Below, piece by piece: positions 28,830 to 62,246 of a stretch of 64,000 bases of DNA; the stretch's first letter is position 1, and the number at the start of each line of letters is the position of its first letter. The stretch lies in the sequence record SRR20825006_1106; one strand, 5' to 3'. Made by a program: the position numbers and the translations under genes. The notes under the pieces are model-generated. The model ran no database searches, was not told where the DNA came from, and saw only the letters and a list, made by a program, of their open reading frames with translations.

Positions 28830-29745
28830 CGTTAGCCTCCTCTCCCATCAAAGCCATAAAACTATCTTCTATATTGGGAGTGACCGATTCAATTTCCACA
28901 TCGTGGATGCCTTGCTTAACTAAATAGCTTTTCAGCTCTTCTAAGTCAGGATTTTCATTCTTTTCCGTGTAATGGAGAAATTCGCCAAAAGGATGGACTG
29001 AATGAGTTTGTTCGTAGTTTTTCAATGCTAAAAGAAGAGGATAGGTCTCTGCTGCTTTTATGCCTAGTAACGGCTTTTTGAAAGTTCTTACAATGTTAAA
29101 GGGAGTATCAATCTGTAGTGTTTTTCCTTCTTGGATGAGTGCAACGCGATCGCATAATTTCGCTTCATCCATATAAGGTGTAGAAACCACAATGCTAATC
29201 CCTTGTTCTTTCAGGCTCACCAACATATCCCAAAATTCTTTTCTCGAAACGGCATCAACACCGGTTGTTGGTTCATCGAGAAATAGCAACTCTGGTTTAT
29301 GAATTAGGGCACAACACAGCGCCAACTTTTGTTTCATCCCACCTGAAAGCTTTCCCGCTAAACGAGTATTAAAAGGCTCCAGCTGTTTGTAAATGGGCTC
29401 AATCAGTTCATAATTTTCTGATATGGTAGTTCCAAATACCGATGCAAAAAAATCTAAATTTTCTTCAACACTTAAATCCTGATATAAAGAAAATTTACCT
29501 GGCATATAGCCCAATTTGGGACGTATTTTTTTGTATTCAGAAACTACATCATAACCCAACACTTTAGCGCTTCCTGAATCTGGAATCAGAAGTGTGGTTA
29601 AAATCCTAAATAAGGTTGTTTTTCCCGCACCATCTGGGCCGATGAAGCCGAAAATCTCGCCCTTGCTTACACTTACATTAATGTCAGTTAGTGCATTTAC
29701 AGAACCGTAGGATTTATTTAGCGATGTTATTTCTACTACAGACAT
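28822..29745 (-). CDS. ABC transporter ATP-binding protein (YbhF N-half-like)
   Basis: Walker A GPDGAGKT, LSGGMKQ, LDEPT, STPY (switch His replaced). Confidence 0.92.
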   Translation of the reverse strand: MSVVEITSLNKSYGSVNALTDINVSVSKGEIFGFIGPDGAGKTTLFRILTTLLIPDSGSAKVLGYDVVSEYKKIRPKLGYMPGKFSLYQDLSVEENLDFFASVFGTTISENYELIEPIYKQLEPFNTRLAGKLSGGMKQKLALCCALIHKPELLFLDEPTTGVDAVSRKEFWDMLVSLKEQGISIVVSTPYMDEAKLCDRVALIQEGKTLQIDTPFNIVRTFKKPLLGIKAAETYPLLLALKNYEQTHSVHPFGEFLHYTEKNENPDLEELKSYLVKQGIHDVEIESVTPNIEDSFMALMGEEANDE

Positions 29746-29752
29746 GAACGTG

Positions 29753-30640
29753 CTAGTTAAAGTTTACCTCTCCAGGCATTCCAATTTTTATCAATCCATT
29801 TGGATTCAACACCTTCACTTTCACTGCATAAACTTGGGTTACACGTTCTTCTTTTGTTTGAATCATTTTGGGTGTGAATTCTGCCTCGGACGAAATCCAC
29901 GCAACGGTTCCTGAAAGCTTTTGGTTGGTGGTCTCAGTTTCATCGATAAGAACTTCTACTTCTTGTCCCAATTTGATGTTTGGCAATTGCCCTCCTTCTA
30001 CATAAACTCGTAAAATCATTTCGTCAATATTAGCAATTTCAAACAATGGTTTACCTGCGCCAATAAGCTCATGTTGCTCCACAAATTTGTTTAGAACTAT
30101 TCCATTAATTGGATTTACTATTACCGCTCGATGAATCTTATCGTTTATCTGATCCAGCTTTGCATTTACCATCTCTATTTCTGCAAATACCGACTTTTTC
30201 TGAACCTCCGAAGCTCTAATTTGTTTCTCTAAACTAGTTACTTGTCCTGATGCATTATCTATCTGTTGCTGAGTTGAAGCCTTTTCTTTCATTAAAGCCT
30301 CTAGTCTACTTAGCTCCTTTTTTGCGGTTACAAGTTGTGCTTCAAACACATTCTTTTGAGCTTCAATGGTACCGATTTTGGTTTTAATTGATGCTCTTGT
30401 GGCCTTTAGTTCTTGCTTTTGCAGATAGCTTTGCACCGTATCTACGAATCCAGCTACTTCATTGGCGACCAATGTTTTTCCTTCTTCTACCTCAAAAGAA
30501 ACCAGCTTGCCTGACACCTCGCTAGAAATCGTTGTTGCATCAACTTCAAATTGCCCATACGCATCCGATTTTTGTTCGCTAGTGCAGGAAATGGCAGTCA
30601 AAAATAACAGCAACGCTCCAAGTTTACTTCTCAGTTCCAT
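29753..30640 (-). CDS. HlyD-family periplasmic adaptor (YbhG-like), lipoprotein
   Basis: Lipobox TAISC, lipoyl halves flanking a coiled coil, AEFTPK.IQT..ER motif. Confidence 0.9.
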   Translation of the reverse strand: MELRSKLGALLLFLTAISCTSEQKSDAYGQFEVDATTISSEVSGKLVSFEVEEGKTLVANEVAGFVDTVQSYLQKQELKATRASIKTKIGTIEAQKNVFEAQLVTAKKELSRLEALMKEKASTQQQIDNASGQVTSLEKQIRASEVQKKSVFAEIEMVNAKLDQINDKIHRAVIVNPINGIVLNKFVEQHELIGAGKPLFEIANIDEMILRVYVEGGQLPNIKLGQEVEVLIDETETTNQKLSGTVAWISSEAEFTPKMIQTKEERVTQVYAVKVKVLNPNGLIKIGMPGEVNFN

Positions 30641-31923
30641 ACTATTCCTTTCTTTGTTAAGTACTCGATATTTGTTTTTACTAATTCCGTTTGATGAACT
30701 TCTAAATTCAATTTAGCTCTGTGCTCAGCATTTAGTTCTGTTAGCCATTCTGTAGATGTGATAACACCATGCTCGAGTAAACTTTTCTTTTCGCTTACCA
30801 CTTGTTTTCTTAGTTCTACAATACTTTTGTCGAGCTCAATCTGCTTTTCCAAACTTCTGATTCGCTCCAACAATTGAGTTAACGAAGCCTCCAATTGCAA
30901 AGTAAAGGCGTTCTCTTCCACTTCAATACTTCTTTGCTCCAACAAAAGAACTTCATTTCTTTTGGAAGCATTATGCCAATTTCTGAAACTCCATTGCGCT
31001 TTTAACCCAACCATCCAATACAGTTGCATATCATCATCAAATGCATTTAATCCAGGTCGTGCATAAGCTGTTTTTGCAAATGCTGAAAGAGTTGGAAGTT
31101 TATCTGCTTTTAATAAACCTTTGCTCTCTTCTAGCATCGTTGATCTTGCTTTAAAGAGTTCCAATTCAGCTCTGTGTATAGAAGCTTCATTTAGTGTATC
31201 TAATTCTTCTAAGTCGGGATAAGCTAAATCTGGTTGGTTTTTAAAATCTGTACCTAGAATTAACCCTAACGCTTCAAACCCAGATTTTACTGAGGATTTA
31301 AGTTCTAACTGTTGTTGCTCAAGTTTTAATAACTCTGCCTTTAGAACCAATTCATTTCCAGGTAGAAGCACTCCATTTTTTACTCTAGATTGAACCAATT
31401 TTAGTTGTTCAGCAATATCATTGGCCATTAGACTGAGAGATTCTTGCTGTTTTTTCAAAAGGATTATTCCGAAAAATAACCCATCAATTTGAGCACGTAC
31501 ATTTTGTAGCTCTACATCAACCATAGCCAAAGAGGCTTTTTCGTTACTGTTTTCAATCTTTTTTAAAGCACCAACTCTACCCCCATCAAAAATTGATTGA
31601 TTAACATCTATGGAAATACTGTAGTGGTCTTTGCTAAAACCTGGCGAGGATGTGCCCGGAGCAGCAAAAGGAACTTCCGTTACATCAGATTGGTAACTTG
31701 TGCTTGCTCCGACAATTATATTTGGCAACCAGTTAGATTGATTAAGTTGCTGATTAAATCCAGCAATCTTTTGCCTTATCTCAACCTTCTCTGCCGAAGG
31801 ATAGTTCTTTTTTATCTTTTGATAAGCTTCTTGAAGTGTAAAAGTCGGCTCTTCACTTTGTGCCATCAGTGGAGTAACCAATAAACCAAGCACTCCTATC
31901 AATGCAATTCTGAAGATTTTCAT
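30631..31923 (-). CDS. TolC-family outer-membrane efflux channel
   Basis: Signal peptide, two OEP-like repeats (WLPNI...IFDGG; KLPTL), efflux operon context. Confidence 0.85.
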   Translation of the reverse strand: MKIFRIALIGVLGLLVTPLMAQSEEPTFTLQEAYQKIKKNYPSAEKVEIRQKIAGFNQQLNQSNWLPNIIVGASTSYQSDVTEVPFAAPGTSSPGFSKDHYSISIDVNQSIFDGGRVGALKKIENSNEKASLAMVDVELQNVRAQIDGLFFGIILLKKQQESLSLMANDIAEQLKLVQSRVKNGVLLPGNELVLKAELLKLEQQQLELKSSVKSGFEALGLILGTDFKNQPDLAYPDLEELDTLNEASIHRAELELFKARSTMLEESKGLLKADKLPTLSAFAKTAYARPGLNAFDDDMQLYWMVGLKAQWSFRNWHNASKRNEVLLLEQRSIEVEENAFTLQLEASLTQLLERIRSLEKQIELDKSIVELRKQVVSEKKSLLEHGVITSTEWLTELNAEHRAKLNLEVHQTELVKTNIEYLTKKGIVWN

Positions 31924-32525
31924 AATATAACCCCATTAAAAATCAGGTTTGGGATAAGTTCTCTGCGTTCATTCAGAAAACTATCGTATTCATTATCATC
32001 TAAATGAAATAAAGTCTGAGCCATGTTCCTAGCTATCATTGGCATCATGCAAAGACTTATAACATTGATAAGAAATTGATCGGGTGCAATTCCGCGCATT
32101 TTTCCTGAAGCTACGCCCTCTTCTACTTGTTCAATAAATTCTTCAGGGAGATGCATATCCATTGATTTAATGAATTCTTTGAATCTTTCTGGATTCTGGT
32201 TCATTTCATAAACCACAAAGGCAGGCAAGTGAGTATTCTCTAAATATACATCATGATAGAAGTTCACAATCTGAACTACTTTTTCTCGCAGAGTCTTATC
32301 ATTAGCCAAAATGCCAAACAAAGCAGGCATGATTTTCTTAACTCCAGATTTAAAAACCTCTTGAAATAACGCATTCTTACTTCTAAAGTAATAATGCAGC
32401 ATAGATTTGTTTATTCCAGCTTCATCTGCAATCTCCTGCATCCTCGCGCCTTCAAAGCCTCTAAGCTGAAACACTCGCTGAGCAGCTTCAAATATTCGTT
32501 CTTCTGTTTCCTTTTCAATAGCCAT
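31920..32525 (-). CDS. TetR/AcrR-family regulator
   Basis: HTH GFEGARMQEIADEAGINKSMLHYYFRSK; ATG at 32525. Confidence 0.93.
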   Translation of the reverse strand: MAIEKETEERIFEAAQRVFQLRGFEGARMQEIADEAGINKSMLHYYFRSKNALFQEVFKSGVKKIMPALFGILANDKTLREKVVQIVNFYHDVYLENTHLPAFVVYEMNQNPERFKEFIKSMDMHLPEEFIEQVEEGVASGKMRGIAPDQFLINVISLCMMPMIARNMAQTLFHLDDNEYDSFLNERRELIPNLIFNGVIL

Positions 32526-32564
32526 AATCAAATTAATTTGTATTAAATCAATAGTAAGACTTTA

Positions 32565-36969: not shown

Positions 36970-37353
36970 CTAAATCATACTTGCGATTTCTTTAACATTT
37001 TCTACAATGGTGTAGCAAATCCATATGATTGCAAGGGAAATAAAAACTCCCTGGAACATATGCATGAACTCCATTCCATGTGCTCCACTAGGATATCTAA
37101 GCCCAATTTGACGAATATGAGTTCGAACTTTCTTAAAAGTAAAAAAGTAAACAGAGGCTAAACTACCAAAGCTTAGAAGAATTAAAATCTGATATACTTG
37201 ATTGGAAATATCTACCTCAAAATAGTTAGACAATAAAAAACCCAAACCTTTCCCAAGTAAATGGATACATGGAACGATTAATAATACACCAGCACCAGCA
37301 AGTATTTTCTGGGAGGCAGATAAATTTCTAAACATCAATACCAACCTATCCAA
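36970..37353 (-). CDS. Hypothetical small membrane protein (about 3 TM)
   Basis: Three hydrophobic segments; start overlaps the AAA ATPase stop (alternative ATG at 37335). Confidence 0.6.
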   Translation of the reverse strand: MDRLVLMFRNLSASQKILAGAGVLLIVPCIHLLGKGLGFLLSNYFEVDISNQVYQILILLSFGSLASVYFFTFKKVRTHIRQIGLRYPSGAHGMEFMHMFQGVFISLAIIWICYTIVENVKEIASMI

Positions 37354-39058
37354 CTCTGTATTTCAACTCTTCAATAGTGGCTAATATTTCATTTCTGTCC
37401 ATCTCTCTATATCGCTCTGGTAACAATTCTTTGGAAGTACACTCTATAACCGCATTTAAAGTTTGAAGCTCCACTTCCTCTGGGTAAGTTGGTGGGATAA
37501 AGTCAGCGAGTGCAAGATCTAACACCTCTGGGCTTACTACATCTTCGCCCAAAGCTGCCGCTCTAAATTTCGCACGAGTCAAGGCTGCTTCCATATCTGC
37601 TCCAGAGAAAGTAACAATACCTTTTTCAATCAATTTAGGAACGTATTCCTCCGTTAACTTCAATCCCGTTTTCTTTTTCATTGCCTCAAAAAGTTCCACA
37701 CGCTCTTCTTTTGTATGAGGAGGAAACAAAGCCAAATGTTCTTCTGCTCTACCCTGTCGCTTTAAATCGATAGGCATTAAATCTGGACGTGCGGTCATTA
37801 AAAACCACATAATTCTTCCTCGATGGCTCGTATCGCTCATAAACGTAGCAATCTGAGAAAATACACGACTAGAAACACCGCTATCACCGCCAGCGTTTCT
37901 ATCTCCAAGGTAAGCATCGGCTTCATCAATCATCACTGCTACAGGCGCCATAGCTTTAAGCAGAGAAAGGATTTTTTCTAAATTCCCTTCAGTAACACCT
38001 TGCCACTGACTTCGGAAATTTTTCAATTTCACCATAGGGATACCAACTTCACTAGCAAAACAGGTAACCAAAAAGGTTTTCCCGGTTCCAACAGGCCCAC
38101 AAACTAAATACCCCATTGGCATTACATCTTGGCGACCTTCTTTAAGAGCTTTTACCGCTTGACGAAGATGTTTTTTAACATGAGAATGTCCTGCAACATT
38201 ATCGAGAGAATATTGAGTTTCGACAAACTCTAATAAGCCATAAGCTTCAGCTTCTATAAGTTCTTTCTTGTTCTCTCCAAGGCTTTCAAAGGTAATTAAT
38301 TCTTTATTTTCTCGAGCGTTTGAAAGCACACTTCGGATATTCACGTAATTCAGGCCAGCTGTTTGCTGAGCAATAATATCTGGTGTTACGGCAGACAGTG
38401 TTCCAAAATCGTCATTTTTAGTTTCATATTTTATAAACTCAAGACGATCGCTTTCTCCTGGAATATTAATCTTAATTTCTGTGGTGTAAGGATTCTGAAT
38501 AAGTGTTTTATTTAGGTCAGACAAATTCTCAGTTATCATCACCGTGGTAAAATCGGATGCTAAAAACATGGGGTCGTGTGCCCATCTAGAAAGATACACA
38601 AGAGATGTTCTATCTTCATTCCCAGTGGAACCAGCATCACTCATCGGCACTATCGTCTCTGCATAGTCCATTATTAATGCAATACTCTTCTTTTGCTCTA
38701 AACGGAGGCGGAAGTATTGCTCTAACAGAGACATCACTCTAACGGGATCTTTAGGCATTTTCTGAGCATAATCAGTGCCAATTAAACTATCTCTCCCTGC
38801 AATTGCCTGATTGAAATCTTGTTGAGATTCTTTGTCTCTAAAGTAAATACCTGAAGAACGATCGTAAAAAACTACGAAGTCTCTAGATCCAAAGAACTCA
38901 TCAGAAAGAAATGACTTAAGTCTCGAGAACTCCGTTCCTTCATCTGTTTTAAGAGGCACTAAATCATGGACATTACCATGAAGCAAAAAGGTATTAATAG
39001 TACGGCTTAGATATTTTCTCGCAAATTCTTGAGACCAACGTGGATAAAGATCAAACAT
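37346..39058 (-). CDS. Classical-clade AAA+ ATPase with a degenerate N-terminal AAA-like domain
   Basis: Walker A GPVGTGKT, pore loop SQWQGVTE, Walker B VMIDE, SRH TARPDLMPIDLKRQGR, FSGADME. The N-half has FLLHGNVHD and ALIMDYAE in Walker-like positions without GKT. Confidence 0.88.
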   Translation of the reverse strand: MFDLYPRWSQEFARKYLSRTINTFLLHGNVHDLVPLKTDEGTEFSRLKSFLSDEFFGSRDFVVFYDRSSGIYFRDKESQQDFNQAIAGRDSLIGTDYAQKMPKDPVRVMSLLEQYFRLRLEQKKSIALIMDYAETIVPMSDAGSTGNEDRTSLVYLSRWAHDPMFLASDFTTVMITENLSDLNKTLIQNPYTTEIKINIPGESDRLEFIKYETKNDDFGTLSAVTPDIIAQQTAGLNYVNIRSVLSNARENKELITFESLGENKKELIEAEAYGLLEFVETQYSLDNVAGHSHVKKHLRQAVKALKEGRQDVMPMGYLVCGPVGTGKTFLVTCFASEVGIPMVKLKNFRSQWQGVTEGNLEKILSLLKAMAPVAVMIDEADAYLGDRNAGGDSGVSSRVFSQIATFMSDTSHRGRIMWFLMTARPDLMPIDLKRQGRAEEHLALFPPHTKEERVELFEAMKKKTGLKLTEEYVPKLIEKGIVTFSGADMEAALTRAKFRAAALGEDVVSPEVLDLALADFIPPTYPEEVELQTLNAVIECTSKELLPERYREMDRNEILATIEELKYRVG

Positions 39059-39123
39059 AGTTCCGTTTTTCGATGTTATAGTGTATCAAAGTGAGGCTAA
39101 AATTAAATTACAGCAAGTAATAT

Positions 39124-40404
39124 CTACTCGATTATAATTAGTTTTATAGTTTCGATGCGACTTTGAGTAGCTTTACTAATAATAAACTTATACCCATCAA
39201 TCAGCACTTCTTCATTCACTTTTGGAATACGCCCTAAATTATTTATGATGTAGCCCGCTACGGTATCGTACTCAGAAGGTTCCAAAGGAATTTCTATTTC
39301 TGAAAAATGTTGAACAAGTTCAGAAATTTCCACGTTACCGCTTATCACAAAATTGTTTGGCGAGATTCGCTTCATGATTTCATCCTCTACATCATGCTCG
39401 TCTTGGATATCGCCTACTACTTCTTCTAATAAATCCTCAATAGTTACCATACCCGCCGTTCCTCCATATTCGTCTAAAACAATAGCTACCGACATGTTTG
39501 ATTTACGAAATTCGGTCATCAAGGCTTTAGATTTCTTACTAGATGGAACTAGCTTTATCGGACGAATAATCTCGTGGAGAGATTTAGGGTTCTTAAAAAA
39601 GTCGTGCGCAAACACCACTCCAATAACATCATCGATACTATCCCTAAACACAGGTAGCTTTGAATGACCCGACTCAACAAGTACTTTTAGCACCTCTGAA
39701 ACAGGTGTTGATTTATCCACCGCTTCGATATCAATCCTAGGAATCATTGAATCTCTAACTCTCTTGTTTGAGAGTTCTAAAACATTATGCAAAATCTCTG
39801 AATCATCCTCGTCAATTTCGTCACTTCCCCCACCTTCACGTAGTTCTTTAAAAATAAGCTCTACATCTCTTCTACGATAAAATTGTTCGGCTTTTTCTGC
39901 ATCTGGAACTAGCCATTTTATAAGCGTATTTGATGAACTATTAGCAATTACAATAAGTGGCTTTAGTACATAATAAAATAATCTTAGAGGGAGCGCTATA
40001 ATATTAACCATCAAATCAGCTTGAGCCCTAAATATAGCTTTTGGTAGAATCTCGCCAAATAGCATAATAACAAACGAGGCTATAATGGTTTGAATGCTAA
40101 GAACTTGAAATGCAGAAGGAATAACTCCAAACCAAGCATTAAAATAGTTAGAAACGGGGTCCGCTAAGAAAATAGCCATTAATGTAGCGTAAACTACATT
40201 AACAATGTTATTACCAACTAAGGTAGTAGTTAGAAAAGTCTCTGGATTCTTTGAGAAAAAGCCAATTGAGCCTGATATAAGGTTATTTTTTCTAGATGCT
40301 ACTTCAAGCTTAAGCTTATTAGCAGTAACGAAGGCGATTTCTGCTCCTGAGAAAAAACCACTTAATAGTATGGTAAACGCTATGAGAAGCCACTCTAAAC
40401 TCAT
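39124..40404 (-). CDS. CNNM/CorC-HlyC (hemolysin-family) CBS-domain transporter
   Basis: FFSGAEIA, LVGNNIVN, FGEILPK, DEYGGTAGMVTIEDLLEE, YDTVAG. Confidence 0.92.
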   Translation of the reverse strand: MSLEWLLIAFTILLSGFFSGAEIAFVTANKLKLEVASRKNNLISGSIGFFSKNPETFLTTTLVGNNIVNVVYATLMAIFLADPVSNYFNAWFGVIPSAFQVLSIQTIIASFVIMLFGEILPKAIFRAQADLMVNIIALPLRLFYYVLKPLIVIANSSSNTLIKWLVPDAEKAEQFYRRRDVELIFKELREGGGSDEIDEDDSEILHNVLELSNKRVRDSMIPRIDIEAVDKSTPVSEVLKVLVESGHSKLPVFRDSIDDVIGVVFAHDFFKNPKSLHEIIRPIKLVPSSKKSKALMTEFRKSNMSVAIVLDEYGGTAGMVTIEDLLEEVVGDIQDEHDVEDEIMKRISPNNFVISGNVEISELVQHFSEIEIPLEPSEYDTVAGYIINNLGRIPKVNEEVLIDGYKFIISKATQSRIETIKLIIIE

Positions 40405-40474
40405 TTGAGCTCCTCATTATACAATATGCGACCTGCCGGTGGAGGTTCGTCGTTCATTAATAAAATATTAGTTC

Positions 40475-41254
40475 CTATTTGCCAGAAAAAACGGGTTTTC
40501 TTTTTTCAAGAAATGCGTTTGTTCCTTCTTTAAAATCAGCAGTGTTGTACAAATTTCCAAATAGATTTGCCTCCGACTCATACCCTGAGTTTTTGCCTGC
40601 TTCATTAATAGCTAAGATAGCATTTTTTATTGCAATTGGACCATGCTTCATTATGCTTTTCATCATATTTTTTGCAGCGTCAATTGCAGTGTCTTCAGCT
40701 ATGGAATTAATTAAGCCGATATCCCTAGCTTCTGATGCATTAACAAATCGTCCCGAAAGCACTAATTCTAATGATTTTGCCTGCCCAACTAACTTAGGTA
40801 ATCTTTGTGTGCCACCGTAACCAGGAATTAATCCTAAACTCACTTCTGGCAAGCCTATAAGCGCATTTTTAGAAGCAATCCTAATATGACATGCCATTGC
40901 AAGTTCACAGCCACCACCCAATGCATAGCCATTTATAGCCGCTATAATAGGCTTGATTGAATCTTCTAACCTTTGAAAAACACGTTGTCCACGTAAAGAT
41001 AGCGAAACCGCTTCAGCATCCTCGAGCGTATTAAGCTCTTTTACATCTGCACCTGCAACAAAAGCTTTGTCACCAGCCCCTGTAATAATTACGCCTTTAA
41101 CATGATCGTTTTCTTGAATGGATGTTATTGCTAAATCTAACTCTTCAAACACTTGGTTGTTAAGCGCATTCATTTTATAAGGGCGATTGATAGTTAGCAG
41201 ACAAACACCAGAATCATCGATTTCTAAAAGTAGTGTTTCGTAAGATTCGCTCAT
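40475..41254 (-). CDS. Enoyl-CoA hydratase (crotonase)
   Basis: FVAGAD, ALGGGCELA, LPEVSLGLIPGYGGTQRL, AFLEKR. Confidence 0.92.
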   Translation of the reverse strand: MSESYETLLLEIDDSGVCLLTINRPYKMNALNNQVFEELDLAITSIQENDHVKGVIITGAGDKAFVAGADVKELNTLEDAEAVSLSLRGQRVFQRLEDSIKPIIAAINGYALGGGCELAMACHIRIASKNALIGLPEVSLGLIPGYGGTQRLPKLVGQAKSLELVLSGRFVNASEARDIGLINSIAEDTAIDAAKNMMKSIMKHGPIAIKNAILAINEAGKNSGYESEANLFGNLYNTADFKEGTNAFLEKRKPVFSGK

Positions 41255-41259
41255 ACTTC

Positions 41260-42150
41260 CTATTCTTTAATTTTAGTTTGAGAATCTTTAGTTATTTCAA
41301 CGTCATCACTAGAAATTTCATTTAAAATAGAGTCGAAATCAAGTTCTGTTTCCCACTCGGTAGTGTAACCTGGTAAAATATCTTGATCCAAATCCTCAAT
41401 AAGCTGTGACGTTTCATCTACTTCGGTAAGAAGATTATCCAGTTGGAATCCAATTTCCTCAGGGTTACTCATCGTCATAGATTGTTCGTAAATATATCGT
41501 ACGGCATCTTCTATAGTTTCTAAGTGCGTTTCGCAAACCAAATACTTCTCTTTGGCTATTTTGAACTTTTGTAAACGCTTTTGCATGATTGCAACACGTC
41601 TCGCTTTTGTTCTCTTTAGCTTTTCAGACTCTATAGTTTTAATCTCTTCAATTTGTCGTACTACCTCTTCCTTCAAGTTATTCTCTAACGAAGTATTAAG
41701 ATAAATTTCATATCGCTTTATGAGATCTAGTAGAGTTAGATAGTTTCCCAACAGCTCTTCTATCTTCTTCCCAATATTATCGAGCAAACCTTGCGAGCTG
41801 TATGGAAGTTTTTCAAAATTCTCTTGTACTAACTTAGCCAAGTGCTTTAGCACTAGAAAACGTTTTTGGCTTGCTGAGTCTAATGACTGAAAAAGATCTT
41901 TTTCGTTATTAGAAGCATGGCGCTCTTTAATTTTCTTTAGCTCTGTTTTCTTTCTAAAGCGCGGCAATTTAGGCACAATACCTAAATACATTAACTCTAG
42001 CCCAAAAACAGTGGTAAGCATAACGCTTGATGCATCCCCGAAACCACTAAGAAGGAACGCTGATAGTGTAGCGAGTAATAATCCTCCTAAATTAATGGGG
42101 TTCATAAATGCTTCACGCGTATAATTGATATTTAGTTCGTCTGCTGACAT
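41260..42150 (-). CDS. Hypothetical protein: 2 N-terminal TM helices plus long coiled coil and acidic tail
   Basis: Hydrophobic hairpin at about aa 20-60, then a Leu/Glu/Lys-rich helical region; TAATG coupling to the upstream ORF. Confidence 0.75.
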   Translation of the reverse strand: MSADELNINYTREAFMNPINLGGLLLATLSAFLLSGFGDASSVMLTTVFGLELMYLGIVPKLPRFRKKTELKKIKERHASNNEKDLFQSLDSASQKRFLVLKHLAKLVQENFEKLPYSSQGLLDNIGKKIEELLGNYLTLLDLIKRYEIYLNTSLENNLKEEVVRQIEEIKTIESEKLKRTKARRVAIMQKRLQKFKIAKEKYLVCETHLETIEDAVRYIYEQSMTMSNPEEIGFQLDNLLTEVDETSQLIEDLDQDILPGYTTEWETELDFDSILNEISSDDVEITKDSQTKIKE

Positions 42151-42611
42151 TAACTGCTTTCTTTATCGTTAGCTGATGAAGGATTTTTCTGTTGTTTCTG
42201 CCCGATGGTTTTTTCTGTCTTTATTTCTTCTGCATGTTTTTCAATTTCAGAATAAAGCATTCCCATTTCGGCTTTTACTTGCTGCAAGGTTTCTTTGGCT
42301 TTCTGCTTTTTCAAAACCTCATCGAGTTCATCATTCTTAATTTCTTGCTGAAGAGTTGAATCGTCATCACTTAAGCTATCCATAGTTACATCCAATCGAG
42401 CCTCAACATGTGTTACCTTGTCACGAACTTTCCCCAAAAACTCATCCATCGTTTCAAGTAAATTGTTTGGGTCCATATTATTTATGGCTTGTGCAATTTT
42501 ACCTTTCTGTTCCGCAGTTTTTAATCGCGCTTTAGCTTCTTTAATACGTCGGTAATGTTCCTTGTATTCTTCTTTTAAGCGTTCACGCTCTTGTTCGTTT
42601 TGAGTGCTCAT
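42150..42611 (-). CDS. Coiled-coil protein; probable N-terminally truncated PspA paralog
   Basis: Colinear similarity, by manual alignment, to the C-terminal half of the adjacent PspA (see findings). Confidence 0.7.
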   Translation of the reverse strand: MSTQNEQERERLKEEYKEHYRRIKEAKARLKTAEQKGKIAQAINNMDPNNLLETMDEFLGKVRDKVTHVEARLDVTMDSLSDDDSTLQQEIKNDELDEVLKKQKAKETLQQVKAEMGMLYSEIEKHAEEIKTEKTIGQKQQKNPSSANDKESS

Positions 42612-42623
42612 AGTGTAATCCTA

Positions 42624-43370
42624 TCAGCTTTTCTCTCTGTTACCAAGAGTTTTTGATTTATTCGTTTCTTCCTGAATAGGTTCTTCGTTCATATTAATCG
42701 AACCAGAAGAATCACCCATTTCCATTTTGAATTGTTCTACTAACTCATGCGCTCTAATTTTCTCAGCGTTAGCTTCAATTTCCATCGTTTGAGTGTCAAT
42801 ACTGTCTAAAGCAATTTCCATACGAGCTTCATTTTTAGCAGATTCTTCGTTGATACGAGAAATCATTTCATCATGAGTCTGATCAATTCCACCCACTTCA
42901 AATTGCTCTAAAGTATCCGCAATTTTTGATTGCCATTCAGCGCGTTCGCTAGCCCGGAGAGCTTCTTTAGCTTCCTGAATCTTACGATCTTTTTCTCGCA
43001 TAAACACTTTTTTCACCTTAAGCGCTTTTTCGTAAGCACGTTCTGCGAAAGCAAGCTGGTCATTGGTGTGTATGATTGTTTCTTTGGCCTTCTCAAGTTG
43101 CAAAGCATAACCTTCAGCAATATCATCACGATTTGCCTGAATGGCCGACTTTATCTTTGATGTAAGTTCAGCAATCTGCTTTTCGTTACGTTTCGCTTCT
43201 TTCTGCAACATCAACAAATTTGCCTTAACCGTGGCAATATTTTCATTCATTTGCGGAATTTGATCATTCAAATCTCGGATGTTTTGTTCCAAAATCAGTT
43301 TTGGATCTTCCATTGAACTGATTAATCCCCCAAACATCGACTTTATTGCGCGTATAAATCTTTTAAACAT
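42624..43370 (-). CDS. pspA: PspA/IM30 (Vipp1, ESCRT-III superfamily) protein
   Basis: Amphipathic N-helix MFKRFIRAIKSMFGGLI, EDPKLILEQNIRDL and AIQANRDDIA hairpin-tip motif. Confidence 0.9.
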   Translation of the reverse strand: MFKRFIRAIKSMFGGLISSMEDPKLILEQNIRDLNDQIPQMNENIATVKANLLMLQKEAKRNEKQIAELTSKIKSAIQANRDDIAEGYALQLEKAKETIIHTNDQLAFAERAYEKALKVKKVFMREKDRKIQEAKEALRASERAEWQSKIADTLEQFEVGGIDQTHDEMISRINEESAKNEARMEIALDSIDTQTMEIEANAEKIRAHELVEQFKMEMGDSSGSINMNEEPIQEETNKSKTLGNREKS

Positions 43371-43440: not shown

Positions 43441-44784
43441 TTAAAGCTCAAATACCCTTGTGCCCTTACTATCTACAATGTGAGTAACCAGAAATTCCTT
43501 TACAGGTTTTGTTTCTGAAATTGAAACTGCTCCGAGTAAAAGTTCTGTAGCAACTTCAATCATGGTGGGCTTGTTCGTGAAAGCGACCATAATTGTTTCA
43601 CCTTTTGTAACTTTATCTCCTACTTTCTTTTGTAGAACAACTCCAGCTTGGGCATCAACCGCTTCTTCTTTGGTTTTTCGCCCAGCCCCGAGTTCAACAG
43701 ATGCTGTTCCAATCTCAAAAGCATTTAACCCAGAAATATATCCTGAGGCTTCAGCCTTAATTTCAAATTGATGCTTAGCTATTGGGTATGCTTCTGGATT
43801 CTTAATTATTTCAATATCACCACCTTGCTCTTCTACAATATCCAACCACTTCTGAAAAGCCTCACCATTTTCAACTTGCTGGTGGCTAATTTTAATTCCT
43901 TCTTCAACAGTAGCAGCCTTACCACCTAAATAAATCATCGTGCCAGAAAGCAGATGCGAAAGAAGCATTATGTCCTCTGGGCCCTCGCCTTTTAGAGCGT
44001 CAATACTTTCTTCTATCTCAAGCCAATTTCCAATTTTATAGCCTAAAGGTTGTTGCATATTTGTTAGGTATGCAATGGTTTCCTTTCCAAATTGTTCTCC
44101 AATTCCTACCAAAGCGGTTGCAAGTTTTGTAGCATCTTCTGCTGTTTTCATAAAAGCACCCGCACCGTATTTCACATCTAGAACTAATGCATCAATTCCT
44201 TCAGCAAGTTTTTTGCTCATTATACTACCAGCAATAAGCGGGATCGATTCTACCGTCCCTGTAACATCTCTTAGTGCATATAATCTTTTATCAGCAGGAG
44301 CGATTTCTTCAGTTTGCCCTACTAGAACTAGATTCTGACGTTCAAGAATTTCTATATATCGAGCTAGGTCAACGTCTACTGTAAATCCAGTAATAGATTC
44401 TAGCTTATCCAAAGTTCCACCAGTGTGGCCTAAACCTCGTCCTGAAATCATTGGAACGGGTACGCCTGCACTCGCCACAATTGGCGCAAGAATTAGTGAC
44501 AACTTATCGCCTACCCCGCCAGTAGAGTGTTTATCTACCTTCTTACCTGGGATATGAGAAAGATCCACCACAATACCTGAGTGAAGCATCGACTCGGTTA
44601 ACGCCGCCGATTCCTCATCATTTAAACCATTTAGAAAGGTAGCCATTAAAAAAGCACTGATTTGATAATCAGGAATTTCATCGGCTGTATAAGCGTCGAT
44701 TAAATAACGGATTTCTTCTCTGGTAAGAACTTTACCGTCACGTTTCTTACGAATTAGGGAAACAATACTATAATTTTTAATCAT
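43441..44784 (-). CDS. pdp: Thymidine/pyrimidine-nucleoside phosphorylase
   Basis: DKHSTGGVGDK, SGRGLGHTGGTLDKLE, LYALRDVT, SIMSKK. Confidence 0.93.
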   Translation of the reverse strand: MIKNYSIVSLIRKKRDGKVLTREEIRYLIDAYTADEIPDYQISAFLMATFLNGLNDEESAALTESMLHSGIVVDLSHIPGKKVDKHSTGGVGDKLSLILAPIVASAGVPVPMISGRGLGHTGGTLDKLESITGFTVDVDLARYIEILERQNLVLVGQTEEIAPADKRLYALRDVTGTVESIPLIAGSIMSKKLAEGIDALVLDVKYGAGAFMKTAEDATKLATALVGIGEQFGKETIAYLTNMQQPLGYKIGNWLEIEESIDALKGEGPEDIMLLSHLLSGTMIYLGGKAATVEEGIKISHQQVENGEAFQKWLDIVEEQGGDIEIIKNPEAYPIAKHQFEIKAEASGYISGLNAFEIGTASVELGAGRKTKEEAVDAQAGVVLQKKVGDKVTKGETIMVAFTNKPTMIEVATELLLGAVSISETKPVKEFLVTHIVDSKGTRVFEL

Positions 44785-47504: not shown

Positions 47505-49430
47505 ATGTCTACACCATTTTCCGATTTAGAACTCACCACATTTGAAAAAATACCAACTACCATATTTGGTACTGCAAAAGAAGGCTCCGATTTTGTAGCT
47601 CAGCAAATTGCAGATTTAATAACAGAACGAAATAAACAGAATAAAAAAACAGTACTTGGCCTTGCAACAGGCTCAACTCCTACTCAGATTTATGATGAAT
47701 TAGTTCGAAAGCATAAAGAGGAAGGACTAAGTTTTAAAAACGTTGTTACGTTTAACTTAGACGAATACTTCCCGATGCAGCCGGATACGTTACAGAGTTA
47801 CGTACACTTTATGAACGAGTATTTATTCGATCATATCGACATTGCTCCTGAGAACGTAAACATTCCAGACGGAACACTAAAGAAAGAAGATATACCTGCT
47901 TTTTGTAAGAAGTATGAAGCAAAAATAGAAGCCGCAGGTGGTCTTGATATTCAAATTCTAGGAGTTGGAAGAACTGGTCATATTGGTTTTAACGAGCCTG
48001 GTTCTCCACTCGATTCAAAAACACGCCTAATCACCCTAGACAGACATACCATGCTGGACGCTGCTAGCGGTTTTTTTGGCATTGAAAATGTTCCAAAACG
48101 CGCTATAACTATGGGCGTTGGCACTATTATGAAAGCTCGCAAAATTTATGTTCTTGCTTGGGGCGAAGGTAAAGCAACAATTATTAACAAAACGGTAGAA
48201 GGCGAGATTAGTAATCATACCCCTTCAACTTTTCTACAAAATCACCCAGATTGCCAAGTCATACTTGACGAAGCCTCTTCTGCAGGATTGACTCGAGTAA
48301 AAACCCCATGGTTAGCTGGTTCGATTAAGTGGAGTAATTTCCTAATCAAGAAAGCGGTTATTTGGCTCAGTAAAAAAGTAGATAAGCCAATTTTAAAGCT
48401 AACTGAAGAAAATTATCGTGAATATGGTATGAACGATGTCTTAATTGAAATCGGTACCGCTTATAACGTTAATATTCGTGTATTCAACCAAATTCAGCAT
48501 ACTATAACAGGATGGCCAGGTGGCAAGCCTGATGCTGACGATACTTATCGTCCAGAAAGAAAAAATCCTTTCCCAAAAAAGGCGCTTATTTTTAGCCCTC
48601 ACCCAGACGATGATGTAATCTCAATGGGTGGAACATTTATCCGTCTTGTTGACCAAGGTCATAAAGTACATGTTGCTTATCAAACTTCAGGAAATATTGC
48701 CGTATTTGACGAAGATGCACTTCGTTTTGCAGATTTCGTAACTGATTACAACGACGCCTTTGGTGTTAAAGACTCTTCTGTGAATAGCATCTTTTCTGGT
48801 GTTAGAAAGTTTTTAAATAACAAAAAAGAAGGTGAAGTTGATTCTGAAGAAGTTAAAACCATAAAAGGTTTAATTCGTCGTGGCGAAGCAAAAGCTGCAA
48901 GTAGATATGTGGGTTTACCTGACGAGCATATCCACTTTCAAGATCTACCTTTCTACGAAACTGGGAAAATTAGAAAGAAACCAATTGGCCCAGAAGACAT
49001 TCGAATTACTAAAGAATTAATTCAGTCTATTAAGCCTCACCAAATTTATGCTGCCGGTGATTTATCCGATCCTCATGGAACGCACAGAGTTTGTTTAGAA
49101 GCTGTATTTCAAGCGCTAAGAGAACTTCGAGACGAGCCATGGATGAAAGATTGTTATGTGTGGCTATACCGCGGTGCATGGCAAGAATGGGAAATCGAAG
49201 ACATTGAAATGGCTGTACCGTTAAGCCCAGAAGAAACCGATCGCAAAAGACGTGCTATTTTCAAGCATCAGTCTCAGAAAGATCGCCCTCTTTTCCCAGG
49301 CTCTGATCGCAGAGAGTTCTGGCAACGAGCAGACGACCGAACTAGAACGACAGCTACATCCTACGATGATCTCGGTTTAGCAGAGTACGAAGCTATGGAA
49401 GCTTTTGTACGCTGGAAAGAATTAGACTAA
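47505..49430 (+). CDS. nagB: Glucosamine-6-phosphate deaminase fused to a PIG-L/LmbE-type deacetylase domain
   Basis: LGLATGSTP, FNLDEY, GRTGHIGFNEPGS; C-terminal SPHPDDD, DPHGTH and KHQSQ. Confidence 0.93.
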   Translation: MSTPFSDLELTTFEKIPTTIFGTAKEGSDFVAQQIADLITERNKQNKKTVLGLATGSTPTQIYDELVRKHKEEGLSFKNVVTFNLDEYFPMQPDTLQSYVHFMNEYLFDHIDIAPENVNIPDGTLKKEDIPAFCKKYEAKIEAAGGLDIQILGVGRTGHIGFNEPGSPLDSKTRLITLDRHTMLDAASGFFGIENVPKRAITMGVGTIMKARKIYVLAWGEGKATIINKTVEGEISNHTPSTFLQNHPDCQVILDEASSAGLTRVKTPWLAGSIKWSNFLIKKAVIWLSKKVDKPILKLTEENYREYGMNDVLIEIGTAYNVNIRVFNQIQHTITGWPGGKPDADDTYRPERKNPFPKKALIFSPHPDDDVISMGGTFIRLVDQGHKVHVAYQTSGNIAVFDEDALRFADFVTDYNDAFGVKDSSVNSIFSGVRKFLNNKKEGEVDSEEVKTIKGLIRRGEAKAASRYVGLPDEHIHFQDLPFYETGKIRKKPIGPEDIRITKELIQSIKPHQIYAAGDLSDPHGTHRVCLEAVFQALRELRDEPWMKDCYVWLYRGAWQEWEIEDIEMAVPLSPEETDRKRRAIFKHQSQKDRPLFPGSDRREFWQRADDRTRTTATSYDDLGLAEYEAMEAFVRWKELD

Positions 49431-49443
49431 TAAGTCTGCACTT

Positions 49444-49476
49444 AAAAAGGCGAAGAATAATCTTCGCCTTTTTTTT
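49444..49476 (+). terminator. Intrinsic terminator after nagB
   Basis: aaaaaggcgaaga-ataa-tcttcgcc followed by a T tract. Confidence 0.85.
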
Positions 49477-49573
49477 ATCAATTTTTTGCACATTTTTGTG
49501 TACCCTTCACCCAACTTTTATTGAAATAATTTCCGACTTGGATTGAAACAGCCACACCTAACGATTATAGCTT

Positions 49574-50857
49574 ATGAGCAATTTTAAGAAAAACCCTTGG
49601 TCTTGGATATCTACCCTCTATTACACACAAGGACTTCCTTATGTAGTTGTGATGACCGTTTCGGTAATCATGTACAAGAATCTAGGTTACTCTAACACTG
49701 AAATTGCTTTTTATACAAGCCTTTTGAATTTACCCTGGGTAATTAAGCCTATTTGGAGCCCAATGGTAGATATGTTTAGAACCAAGAGATGGTGGACATA
49801 TACTACACAGGCTGTTATTGCAGTTGGTTGTGCAGGGGTAGCCTTCTCATTATACACCGAAAGCTTCTTTACCGTAAGTATGGTGTTTCTATTTATACTC
49901 GCATTCAGTTCTGCAACGCATGATATTGCCGCAGATGGTTTTTATATGCTTGCTTTAAGCGACGATAAACAAGCCTTTTTTGTAGGGATTAGATCTACTT
50001 TCTACCGCTTAGCAATAATGAGTGGTGAAGGTTTATTTGTAGTTATTGCTGGTGTAATTGCATCCTCAACTGGCGATGTAGAGTTTTCCTGGACAGTTGT
50101 GTTTAGCATACTATCAGTTCTTATGCTACTTTTAAGTGCATATCACGCGTTCATATTACCAAAACCTGCTGGTGATATTGCTGAGAAAACAAGCGCAAAC
50201 TCCACTTTTAGTAAAGACTTTTTCCTCACATTCGCACTTTTCTTCAAGAAAAAGCAGATAGGACTAATACTCACATTCATTCTACTTTATCGTTTTAGTG
50301 AAGCACAACTTGTAAAGCTTGCCGTACCATTCTTGTTAGATGACAAGTCTATTGGAGGGCTCGGCTTATCTACAACCGAGGTTGGTGTGATTAACGGAAC
50401 TGTTGGTGTAATTGCATTAGTTATTGGTGGTATAATTGGTGGATTGTTAATCTCTAGAGATGGGCTTAAAAAATGGCTCTGGCCAATGATTATTGCCATG
50501 AACTTACCTAATGCTTCCTATTTCGTTTTAGCATATTTCCAGCCAGATTCTTACACGTTAATCAGCTCTTTAGTAGCTATTGAAAAATTCGGTTACGGTT
50601 TTGGCTTTACCGCCTTTATGATGTATTTAATCTATGTTGCTAAGGGTTCTCACCAAACAGCTCATTACGCTTTTGCAACAGGTCTAATGGCTTTAGGCAT
50701 GATGATTCCAGGAGCGTTCAGTGGTATGATTCAAGAAGCGCTGGGATACCAGATGTTTTTTGTTTGGATTATAGTTGCAACAATTCCTGCTTTTGTTGTA
50801 GCAAGGTATGTAACTATTGATGAAGACTTTGGTAAGAAAAAAGAGCCTGCTTCTTAA
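49574..50857 (+). CDS. AmpG-like MFS permease
   Basis: LYYTQGLP, PWVIKPIWSP and SATHDIAADG (AmpG/acetyl-CoA transporter family motifs); about 12 TM. Confidence 0.82.
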   Translation: MSNFKKNPWSWISTLYYTQGLPYVVVMTVSVIMYKNLGYSNTEIAFYTSLLNLPWVIKPIWSPMVDMFRTKRWWTYTTQAVIAVGCAGVAFSLYTESFFTVSMVFLFILAFSSATHDIAADGFYMLALSDDKQAFFVGIRSTFYRLAIMSGEGLFVVIAGVIASSTGDVEFSWTVVFSILSVLMLLLSAYHAFILPKPAGDIAEKTSANSTFSKDFFLTFALFFKKKQIGLILTFILLYRFSEAQLVKLAVPFLLDDKSIGGLGLSTTEVGVINGTVGVIALVIGGIIGGLLISRDGLKKWLWPMIIAMNLPNASYFVLAYFQPDSYTLISSLVAIEKFGYGFGFTAFMMYLIYVAKGSHQTAHYAFATGLMALGMMIPGAFSGMIQEALGYQMFFVWIIVATIPAFVVARYVTIDEDFGKKKEPAS

Positions 50858-50894
50858 TAGAAAATATCTCTTTTAGCATTCCTTCATTTTTTTT

Positions 50895-50930
50895 AAAGCA
50901 CTAGCATAATATAAGCTAGTGCTTTCTTTT
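50895..50930 (+). terminator. Intrinsic terminator after the MFS gene
   Basis: aaagcactagc...gctagtgcttt followed by T-rich sequence. Confidence 0.7.
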
Positions 50931-51194
50931 TATATGAACATACGCCCCATATTTCATTTCTAACGAGCTCTCTTAGTTAGTTTTATCTCACGTTCTTTTA
51001 GATGTTAGACTGTACTTAAAAACGGATCTTACAAAAGGGAAACCCGCCCTTCTTAAGGGCTGTTTACTATTTATTATATAAAGCTAGATGGATTCGAAAA
51101 AACGACAAATCACATTAGTGGAACCTTGATATCAAAATACTACAATCCATTGATTTAGATTGTTCATTACTGGCACTATTTAACTTGTACAAAT

Positions 51195-51234
51195 AAAAAA
51201 GCCAAGACTAGAATACTTTCTAATCTTGGCTTTT
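51195..51234 (-). terminator. Intrinsic terminator after the amidase gene
   Basis: aaaaaagccaaga...tcttggctttt inverted repeat. Confidence 0.75.
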
Positions 51235-51268
51235 ATACACTTTGATTTTATATCTAAGGAATTAGATG

Positions 51269-53071
51269 CTAGTCTAAAATCACCTCTTCCCTCGTTATTG
51301 CAGATACATCTGCATAATCAATAAAATACTCCTCTAATCCATCTGCAATTTGTTCTGCAATACGTATTTGAAAAGCTTCATCAGCTAAAAGTATCTCTTC
51401 TTCAGGATTCGACATAAATGCTGTTTCTACCAATACATTTGGAAATTCGATAGGGGCATTTAATGAGAAATTGAAGCTTCCTGTAATTCCATATTGAGTC
51501 AGTCCAAGATCTAACATTTTGCTATACATTACTTGTGCTAATGGTTTGTAAGCGATGTGCTTATAAAAGGCGCCTGTTCCCTTAGTTGCAAAAGGATCGC
51601 TCGTGTAGCCCAAAGAGTTTGCATGAATACTAACTAGTAGATCAGCTTTACTATTAATAACCATATCGGCACGCTCACTCATATAAACGTAATCATCATT
51701 TTCGCGAGTCATTAATACACTTGCACCACGTGCTTGTAATACAGAATCTAGTTTATGAGAAATCTGAAGAGTAACGTCTTTCTCCATTAGCCCCGTAGAA
51801 CCTAAGGACCCATTATTATTACCTCCATGCCCTGCATCAACTGCAATCTTTAATCCAGCTAATGGACTCTCAAAGTTTGTAACCTTAGGCGCTCTACGAA
51901 CCTTAATAGTTAGTTGAGAACCCCAACCGTAACCAACTGAGTAGCCCCAATTTTGCTTGTTATTCAACTTAATTCTGAGTTGATATAAGTTATCTTCTAA
52001 TTGTCGCCACTCTACCTCTTTAATTCCTTCTGCACTTAAGTGTTTAGTTTTCCAGTTTGTGTTGGAAGTAGCGCCGTAAACATTCACAATAATCTCGTTT
52101 GGATCGAGCTGTTGAGTACTTGTATATGGAAGTTTTTGAGCTAAACTCAGTGTGATAATATCTTCTTGGCTATTACCAGTAATTCGGATATTCCCAGTAA
52201 GTGATTCTGGAACTCGAGCCTCTTCTGGTAATAATTCGACTTGTCCAACAGGAATCCATGCCGAAAGAGCTGGAGTCAATTCAACTTTATAGTTGTCTGT
52301 TAAGCGACCAATCACTTTCAGCTTCACCCCTTTCTCAAGGTACCCATAACGTGCTCCGCCTAAACGATCTGTTCCCATACCAACACTTAAATAAGCTTTG
52401 TCGGCTGTAACTTCTGCAACTCTAGGAAGGCCATTAAAGCTTACCACTGAAGAGCTTTTGGACTTAACATATCCAAAAATTCCTTTCTTCATTTTAAACG
52501 TAATATGCTTTTGATCCACATAATCGCCAGGCATAACTTCGTACTTACCCACATAAACACCTTTCCTTCCACCAGAAAGTTCTTTCATCGGGATATTCCT
52601 TTTAAAACCATCAATGTTGAACACTGCCGATTCATTTGGACTTCCTAGAAAACGCACTTCCAAAACTTCTCCGGTTTTCAACCAGATGTCATCGTTTGGT
52701 AACTCCATTCTATTCGTAATAGTTTTTCCTTTTAAAATATCTGGTACAGATGATTTTGGGCGAAGGAAAATCATTTCTTTTGTAACCGTTTCGCCATTCA
52801 AAACTACTTTAAATTCTAGTCGAACAGTGTCTTCTTCGCTAAGTTCGATAAGTTTAGCAAATGCCCCGTTAGAATATACTTTCACTTCTTCGCCATTTAT
52901 GAAAGCCTGAGCACCTGGGTGTGTTCCTGCAGCAACTCTATACCTTGAGTAGGGAACTATAGTGGAATCTTCTTCTGGGATGGTTACGTTTAAGAATAAT
53001 GCATCAGCAGATTGAGCAAATATTCCCGTTGATAAGAAAACGAGACTTAATAATGTGAGTAAATATTTCAT
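51269..53071 (-). CDS. N-acetylmuramoyl-L-alanine amidase (Amidase_3), exported, multidomain
   Basis: VDAGHGG, EKDV, LVSIHAN and LVETAF zinc/catalytic motifs; signal peptide from ATG 53071 (MKYLL). Confidence 0.9.
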   Translation of the reverse strand: MKYLLTLLSLVFLSTGIFAQSADALFLNVTIPEEDSTIVPYSRYRVAAGTHPGAQAFINGEEVKVYSNGAFAKLIELSEEDTVRLEFKVVLNGETVTKEMIFLRPKSSVPDILKGKTITNRMELPNDDIWLKTGEVLEVRFLGSPNESAVFNIDGFKRNIPMKELSGGRKGVYVGKYEVMPGDYVDQKHITFKMKKGIFGYVKSKSSSVVSFNGLPRVAEVTADKAYLSVGMGTDRLGGARYGYLEKGVKLKVIGRLTDNYKVELTPALSAWIPVGQVELLPEEARVPESLTGNIRITGNSQEDIITLSLAQKLPYTSTQQLDPNEIIVNVYGATSNTNWKTKHLSAEGIKEVEWRQLEDNLYQLRIKLNNKQNWGYSVGYGWGSQLTIKVRRAPKVTNFESPLAGLKIAVDAGHGGNNNGSLGSTGLMEKDVTLQISHKLDSVLQARGASVLMTRENDDYVYMSERADMVINSKADLLVSIHANSLGYTSDPFATKGTGAFYKHIAYKPLAQVMYSKMLDLGLTQYGITGSFNFSLNAPIEFPNVLVETAFMSNPEEEILLADEAFQIRIAEQIADGLEEYFIDYADVSAITREEVILD

Positions 53072-53072
53072 A

Positions 53073-54329: not shown

Positions 54330-54457
54330 TTTTTTCAATTAAATATTCATGTAGTTTGTAAAGGAATTTATTGAAATAAATTGGAACCTGCTTCCTAAGA
54401 GTCTTACTATTCATCACTTTTACAATTCCCATTATCATCAAGCTTAGATTGAATTAA

Positions 54458-56348: not shown

Positions 56349-56457
56349 TGAATATATCTTAAGGCATTTATTGCCCTTGAAGATATAAATAACGCTGTTG
56401 CTTTTCTACCTAACAATGCTAAAATTGCGATATAAAACTCATTCTAATATTAAGTCA

Positions 56458-57618: not shown

Positions 57619-57665
57619 CACTTTAATAATGATGTTTTAAACTTTCTTTTTTTGACCTTGGTTAT

Positions 57666-60119: not shown

Positions 60120-60145
60120 AATTCTCTAGTTTAAATTTATAAAAT

Positions 60146-60171
60146 GGTAGCTAATACAAATATTAGCTACC
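60146..60171 (-). terminator. Intergenic hairpin (terminator or mRNA stabiliser)
   Basis: ggtagctaata-caaa-tattagctacc, perfect 11-bp stem. Confidence 0.55.
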
Positions 60172-60186
60172 TGTATAAAACGATAT

Positions 60187-62178: not shown

Positions 62179-62193
62179 AATTGAATATTTGTG

Positions 62194-62231
62194 AAAAAAA
62201 AAGGAGCTAATATTTCTATTAACTCCTTTTT
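62194..62231 (-). terminator. Intrinsic terminator between the two GHL10 paralogs
   Basis: aaaaaggag(c)taata...tatta(a)ctccttttt; 9-nt T tract on the minus strand. Confidence 0.65.
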
Positions 62232-62246
62232 AATATGAAATTGATT

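Follow-up and report, generated by a model that had tools for sequence, protein, structure and literature searches.

The disassembly of ESCRT-III polymers in bacteria is an open question, because a 2025 review considers that a Vps4-like ATPase appears to be absent in bacteria (PMC7619361) and a 2024 structure paper leaves the turnover of PspA to chaperones or PspF (PMC11746142). The question is raised again by a gene block at positions 36,970-43,370 of SRR20825006_1106, a stretch of 64,000 nucleotides (the window), which a first-pass annotation had described as a candidate ESCRT-III/Vps4-like system of seven genes. The block is a real conserved module of an already predicted kind, and the first-pass annotation included three genes too many: the likely module consists of four genes, encoding PspA, a hairpin-less PspA paralog, a predicted two-helix membrane protein (the anchor), and a tandem ATPase. 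The pairing of PspA with an ATPase is already predicted in the 2024 survey of Ravi et al. (PMC11237479), which includes neighbourhoods of PspA with "inactive classical AAA + classical AAA" (Table S3, Text S2.2) and draws the ESCRT-III/Vps4 analogy, so that the earlier remark that the broad theme may not be new is answered in print. A tail motif shared by PspA and its paralog, of which the literature searched gave no account, and the hairpin-less character of the paralog make the locus a variant of the predicted module. The features are as follows.

42624..43370, minus strand: PspA/IM30 of a distinct clade, 248 residues (PF04012, 59.1 bits against a cut-off of 33.9)
42642..42653, minus strand: PspA tail motif K240-T-L-G243, a candidate recognition tag judged from sequence
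42150..42611, minus strand: truncated PspA paralog, 153 residues (homologous to PspA residues ~125-222; hhalign 99.2%, E 1e-19)
42201..42212, minus strand: paralog tail motif K134-T-I-G137 (K134 invariant in 29 aligned paralogs)
41260..42150, minus strand: predicted membrane-anchored helical protein, 296 residues (AlphaFold2 model, predicted local distance difference test score (pLDDT) 90.4)
37346..39058, minus strand: tandem AAA+ ATPase, 570 residues, two AAA modules (PF00004 at 318-442)
40475..41254, minus strand: enoyl-CoA hydratase (crotonase; PF00378)
39124..40404, minus strand: CNNM/CorC-family protein (PF01595, CBS, CorC_HlyC)
36970..37353 (start probably 37335), minus strand: small three-helix membrane protein, 127 residues, of no family
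43441..44784, minus strand: pyrimidine-nucleoside phosphorylase (pynp), a conserved upstream neighbour outside the span first annotated

Conservation of the gene block

All seven open reading frames (ORFs) at 36970..43370 were verified as co-oriented on the minus strand, and the gaps of 12, -1, 5, 70, 65, and -8 bp agree with the first description; the final 8-bp overlap hinges on a TTG start, and the Atlas version of this protein, beginning at residue 7, leaves a gap of 10 bp. The Pfam scan confirmed the PspA, crotonase, CNNM, and AAA families among the window genes and assigned no family to the 153-, 296-, and 127-residue proteins. Neither PspB, PspC, nor sigma-54 activator families were detected among the 50 ORFs of the window (39 of these with at least 100 residues), in line with the earlier statement that pspB, pspC, and pspF are missing there. 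The source is Balneola-like: the nearest ATPase loci belong to Balneola and Balneolaceae records (identity up to 98%), and the nearest genome of the collection, G001, agrees with the window at 99% across 10 kb. Two PspC-domain genes of G001 are both located on contigs other than that of the pspA block.

For a survey of the block in Balneolales, the order of G001, a total of 80 ATPase loci were fetched of 112, and 72 had enough upstream sequence. The order pynp-pspA-paralog-anchor-crotonase-CNNM-ATPase was retained in all 72, indicating that it is not due to chance. The best-conserved genes of the block are those for PspA, the anchor, and the ATPase, with median identities of 85%, 85%, and 87%, respectively, as against 64-76% for the remaining genes. 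Promoter and terminator scans gave values at or below the shuffle level (22 vs 29.2 and 5 vs 5.9, respectively), no sequencing run containing the locus is recorded as RNA, and in three presumed-RNA contig sets, which gave short pieces, a joint transcript was seen in none.

Among 401 Bacteroidota genomes, the anchor gene was detected in 99 and the ATPase gene in 98, all of the latter being included in the former. Linkage, defined as the location of the two genes within 5 kb by listed coordinates, was observed in 65 of the 67 Balneolales genomes. The genes of the block are also present in cultured Rhodothermia, namely the type strains of Gracilimonas and Fodinibius.

A second lineage was identified by scanning with 12 distant homologs of the anchor, and the best 80 of its 114 metagenome loci (63-76% G+C) were analyzed; it represents one of about seven distant anchor clusters, and several of the loci are near copies. 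In an alignment spanning the wider anchor family, no stretch was conserved enough to serve for a metagenome scan. Judged from the genes around it, the lineage is likely myxobacterial, because these neighbours match the Archangium row of Table S3 in Ravi et al. PspA is encoded upstream of the anchor in 36/36 loci with room for it, and an ATPase gene (product up to 55% identical) lies downstream in 19 of the 24 loci with at least 6 kb of downstream sequence. Encoding together with pspA and a transmembrane helical gene, as described for the partner ATPase in the survey, is thus seen in Balneolales and in the second lineage. Since CNNM was found in 0/80 of the second-lineage loci, the linkage of ATPase and PspA is present there without CNNM. 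The persistent core across both lineages is PspA, the anchor, and the ATPase. The Handelsmanbacteria row of the survey, with PspA, TM-Snf7, and a tandem ATPase in one operon, adds a third lineage (PMC11237479).

The four proteins and the shared tail motif

On its sequence and structural model, the ATPase is a Cdc48-like tandem AAA+ protein with a degenerate first module, and is not a Vps4. Alignment of the second module identified intact Walker A (321-328) and Walker B (D378-E379) motifs, the pore-loop W352, and the arginine fingers R434/R437; we take the pore loop, arginine fingers, and sensor 1 to have their customary roles. In the first module, HGNVHDL stands in the place of Walker A. The top sequence matches and the full-length structural matches of the model (pLDDT 83.7) are with Cdc48/p97/VAT and Rix7/NVL, from which the protein differs in the absence of an N domain, in the loss of Walker A from the first module, and by an identity of only ~20%. 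Residues 6-541 were aligned to p97 210-763, covering both modules (Z 20.8, root-mean-square deviation (rmsd) 9.6, 459 aligned), and the model gives residues 1-270 an alpha/beta fold, which aligns with p97 D1 and not with MIT. A profile comparison of the two halves kept the D1-D2 register at a non-significant level (0.7%). All profile scores remained under the cut-off (CDC48 77, FtsH 67, and CdvC 48 bits). Taken by itself, the second module matches Vps4 with a Z of 21.1 (rmsd 3.1, 262 aligned), and Vps4, p97 D2, katanin, and fidgetin are tied within 1.1 Z. Pfam gave no match to MIT at E 0.1 and likewise none to Vps4_C, so that neither of the marks of Vps4/CdvC, the MIT domain and the single AAA module, was found. 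The earlier term "Vps4-like", in the sense of an ortholog, has to be abandoned in view of the tandem D1-D2 architecture without an MIT match; the ATPase may nevertheless work like Vps4 without being one. Gene order and modelled architecture, with two AAA modules of which the first is degenerate, place it in the "inactive AAA + classical AAA" type of Ravi et al. No relatives were found in viral contigs. Those in Paenibacillaceae lie on megaplasmids amid hypothetical genes (3 of 5 matches read).

The model of the anchor consists of an N-terminal helical hairpin (helices 18-33 and 40-61), a stalk, and a cytoplasmic helical bundle, by which the two-transmembrane anchor of the first-pass annotation becomes a predicted membrane hairpin protein; only the first of the two helices clears the hydropathy bar. 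It is likely the "SIG+TM+Snf7" protein of the survey, which describes PYNP-PspA-coiled-coil-"SIG+TM+Snf7" in Salinibacter (PMC11237479), and by analogy may be PspM-like. The Snf7 label itself was not reproduced: the PF03357 (Snf7) profile missed the anchor gene in 5/5 genomes, and the profile match to PspA was weak (7.8%). The fold search returned generic helical bundles (best Z 11.2, rmsd 4.2, 152 aligned), with no Snf7, PspA, or Vipp1 chain among the matches listed. BAR-like matches (Z up to 11.2) fall within the range of generic bundles and were set aside. XpaC (PF10112), to which one UniRef name had pointed, was also rejected, its profile missing the anchor gene in 5/5 genomes. An Atlas neighbour carried PF25587 (Rv2743c) at 0.86, with 177 shared features and the family on 40% of members; this lead stays unconfirmed, since the PF25587 profile missed the anchor gene in 5/5 genomes. 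A PDB profile search with the anchor gave nothing useful.

PspA is composed of an N-terminal amphipathic helix, the PspA core, a variable acidic linker, and the C-terminal K-T-L-G motif. Residues 1-18 show the top hydrophobic moment (0.65), which predicts an amphipathic membrane helix. The first-pass identification of PspA is confirmed by the PF04012 score, which is far under the proteobacterial PspA equivalog cut-offs though above the gathering score. In a 48-row tree the clade is split from 24 other Bacteroidota PspAs with support of 100/99, and in G001 the window-type PspA is the sole PF04012 match of the genome.

The truncated paralog noted earlier is borne out by the 99.2% profile match. 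The homology begins at PspA residue ~125, and the paralog is thus without the amphipathic first helix and most of the hairpin, which comprises residues 24-142 in PspA/Vipp1 (PMC8281802); the complete hairpin from helix 1 to helix 2/3 that marks an ESCRT-III protomer is missing. As PspA proteins build ESCRT-III-type polymers through this hairpin together with a helix-5 swap (PMC8281802), the paralog, as far as its sequence tells, probably cannot polymerise alone. It is likely the "Rmar_0091 coiled-coil" of Ravi et al. The paralog was identified in 11/13 non-Balneolales Rhodothermia loci read and in 0/80 second-lineage loci, and was not found in the genomes G019, G089, and G003. In G019 and G089, which belong to one Rhodothermia family, pspA directly adjoins the anchor gene.

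The variable C-terminal tails of PspA and the paralog both contain K-[TS]-[ILVM]-G. The motif was counted within the last 30 residues of PspA and 60 residues of the paralog, R being also accepted at the first position and some genomes being counted twice. It was present in 87/90 Rhodothermia PspAs, 44/44 second-lineage PspAs, and 87/88 paralogs (12 with two copies; the one miss is split), and in 0/24 control PspAs of other clades, which were the strong matches from 29 genomes without anchor and ATPase genes. The background was 7 of 1322 six-frame ORFs and 1 of 120 anchor tails, and among the 50 ORFs of the window the motif occurs only in PspA and the paralog. On the pattern of its occurrence, the motif may be a recognition tag for the motor. 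In the second-lineage loci drawn, the gene immediately ahead of the ATPase encodes a PEGA-domain Ser/Thr kinase; since the motif holds Thr or Ser, phosphorylation is a possible control of the tag.

A tandem ATPase as the proposed disassembly motor of PspA polymers

From the genes present, their linkage, the architecture of their products, and the occurrence of the motif we infer a series of binding and remodelling steps, to which we give a little better than an even chance: the anchor would keep PspA polymers at the membrane, the tandem ATPase would recycle them by way of the tail tag, and the paralog would serve as cap or adaptor. Polymerisation of PspA is predicted to take place on the inner membrane, where the helical-hairpin protein would likely hold it. 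The Cdc48-like ATPase would likely draw PspA subunits from the polymer by the shared C-terminal tag, and its degenerate first AAA module might stand in for MIT as the docking surface that recognises K-[TS]-[ILVM]-G. Threading of polypeptides is the mode of action of classical AAA+ rings whose pore loop is aromatic. The paralog, which retains the tag and the C-terminal helices but not the hairpin, would accordingly act as a cap or decoration of the polymer and supply the motor with extra handles. In favour of this proposal are the co-occurrence of the anchor and ATPase genes, their linkage in Balneolales and the second lineage, the third lineage of the survey, and the high conservation of PspA, anchor, and ATPase. 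It is also favoured by the second module having kept its Walker A/B motifs, the pore-loop Trp, and both arginine fingers, by the persistence of the motif in either lineage within an otherwise variable tail and its absence from all 24 control PspAs, and by the finding that the three PspAs without it (L143, L146, and L147) adjoin paralogs with two copies. A wider version, that bacteria evolved their own ESCRT-III disassembly in which a Cdc48-like motor, its first ring dead, recognises the tail K-[TS]-[ILV]-G as a functional counterpart of the MIT-MIM contact and the hairpin-less tagged paralog of Rhodothermia is both cap and adaptor, is put forward only tentatively.

A number of observations weigh against recycling by the ATPase. 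The co-occurrence of anchor and ATPase is limited to one class plus one genome, and hence is not independent evidence. G003 was the sole genome available of its class, on small contigs. The two genes are linked in 0/30 genomes of the other Rhodothermia orders, being far apart on one contig in 12 and on different contigs in 18. In the non-Balneolales loci read, crotonase follows the trio in 12/13 and CNNM in 11/13, with the ATPase located away. Since the ATPase is unlinked in 30/30 genomes while crotonase and CNNM stay, the adjacency in the window is partly history, and function is not to be read from it alone. The expected linkage between the ATPase and pspA of this clade holds in Balneolales and the second lineage and fails in the other Rhodothermia; likewise, the ATPase stays linked to pspA without CNNM in the second lineage, and in the other Rhodothermia crotonase and CNNM mostly stay with the trio and the ATPase does not. 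Even in the second lineage, the anchor and ATPase genes are separated by 2.4-7.8 kb of other genes, and pynp accompanies pspA in both lineages, consistent with co-transfer of a block. In the ATPase, the sensor-1 Asn position is Ala. Three Paenibacillaceae plasmids carry full-length relatives of the ATPase (28-29% identity), and at a distance of up to 6 kb from these no PspA is annotated. Finally, the motif pattern was drawn from the positive sets and is the mark of a single PspA clade, all motif-positive PspAs lying on one side of a single tree branch, so that the binding partner of the motif might instead be the anchor, a lipid, or PspA.

This last point leads to the alternative that survives best, which we consider rather unlikely and still to be reckoned with: the four proteins belong together, the ATPase acts on the anchor or on damaged membrane proteins, and the motif docks PspA and the paralog on the anchor or the membrane. 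The motif tracks the anchor gene just as closely as the ATPase, and the basic residues after it could bind lipid. However, the nearest solved relatives of the ATPase are Cdc48/p97/VAT and Vps4, which extract subunits from complexes. Mycobacterial PspM also fits docking, as it keeps a PspA species at the membrane (2026 preprint 10.64898/2026.09.09.750162) with an ATPase not in evidence in the sections cited; against this, the survey includes dyads of PspA with this type of ATPase that lack the anchor gene (PMC11237479).

It is improbable that the linkage is a historical accident, in which a block of pynp, pspA, anchor, crotonase, and ATPase genes was co-inherited or transferred and the ATPase is functionally unconnected with PspA. 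The top identities between the two lineages are alike for pynp, PspA, and ATPase (50-58%), the block also holds unrelated enzymes, and the loss of linkage in the other Rhodothermia agrees with this explanation; yet the intervening genes are wholly different between the lineages while PspA, anchor, and ATPase remain, and the ATPase is retained in every non-Balneolales Rhodothermia genome with the anchor gene (30/30) despite the loss of linkage. In other lineages, the pairing of PspA and ATPase is described without pynp (PMC11237479). The literal first-pass reading, a Vps4-type ATPase in a system of seven genes to which the small membrane protein belongs, is largely refuted and very improbable, for the fit of the second module to Vps4 and the co-oriented genes with short gaps are outweighed by the tie with p97 D2, katanin, and fidgetin, the alignment of the N-terminal half with p97 D1, the lower score of CdvC than of CDC48, and the rarity of the small membrane gene (see below).

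Neighbouring genes and known systems

Three genes of the original seven appear to lie outside the module. Crotonase, with a median identity of 64% in Balneolales as against 85-87% for PspA, anchor, and ATPase, is probably a conserved neighbour and not a part of the machine. A crotonase downstream of the anchor gene recurs in Rhodothermia and in 14/34 second-lineage loci, where it is 33-38% identical; in G073 (L141:10127-10834), an ORF that we take to be transposase-like is inserted between the anchor gene and crotonase. The CNNM gene is a Rhodothermia-specific neighbour. The small membrane protein follows the block in only 8/78 loci, its slot being otherwise filled by dozens of unrelated genes, and is a bystander in a hypervariable slot, contrary to its first inclusion in the system. 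Upstream of pspA, pynp was observed in 72/72 Balneolales, 8/13 other Rhodothermia, and 12/19 second-lineage loci; in the second lineage it stands within a salvage cluster (phosphomutase, purine phosphorylase, cytidine deaminase, and amidohydrolase). The unlinked ATPase is often located near or after a conserved gene of ~360 residues (L113, L115, L118, L119, L121-L123, and L125), presumably of class I aldolase type, one fusion with PF01791 having been seen. Elsewhere in the window, 25859-32531 is an ordinary efflux operon (TetR, outer-membrane efflux protein, HlyD, two ABC ATPases, and two ABC-2 permeases), and 47505-63869 is an amino-sugar and peptidoglycan recycling cluster including a glucosamine-6-phosphate deaminase/de-N-acetylase fusion, an amidase, NamZ, GH3, an HGSNAT-like protein, and type IX-secreted GHL10 proteins.

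The module resembles ESCRT-III/Vps4 (CdvB/CdvC) in having a polymer subunit of the ESCRT-III superfamily accompanied by a paralog, a classical-clade AAA+ module with a pore loop, and subunits that carry a short conserved C-terminal motif. In contrast to that system, the ATPase has no MIT or Vps4_C match and two AAA modules instead of one. The tail motif differs from the MIM (MIT-interacting motif) helices of ESCRT-III. As in mycobacterial PspA-PspM (Rv2744c-Rv2743c), a two-helix membrane protein is encoded after pspA, but PF25587 misses the anchor gene and a ClgR gene is not present here. The locus differs also from proteobacterial pspFABC, with none of pspB, pspC, and pspF beside pspA.

Compared with the neighbourhoods of Ravi et al., the second lineage corresponds to the Archangium row, and the trio with the ATPase in one Bacteroidota operon is in none of the rows of Table S3; neither the tail motif nor the missing hairpin is mentioned in the sections cited (PMC11237479). 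The open literature searched, to which subscription papers did not belong, yielded neither an experimental test of the PspA-ATPase pairing nor an account of the tail motif. Rhodothermus marinus has been genetically modified (PMC5822342). To the motor predicted in 2024, the locus thus contributes a candidate handle of four residues and a candidate adaptor, and these candidates make the motor idea open to direct peptide-binding and tail-deletion experiments.

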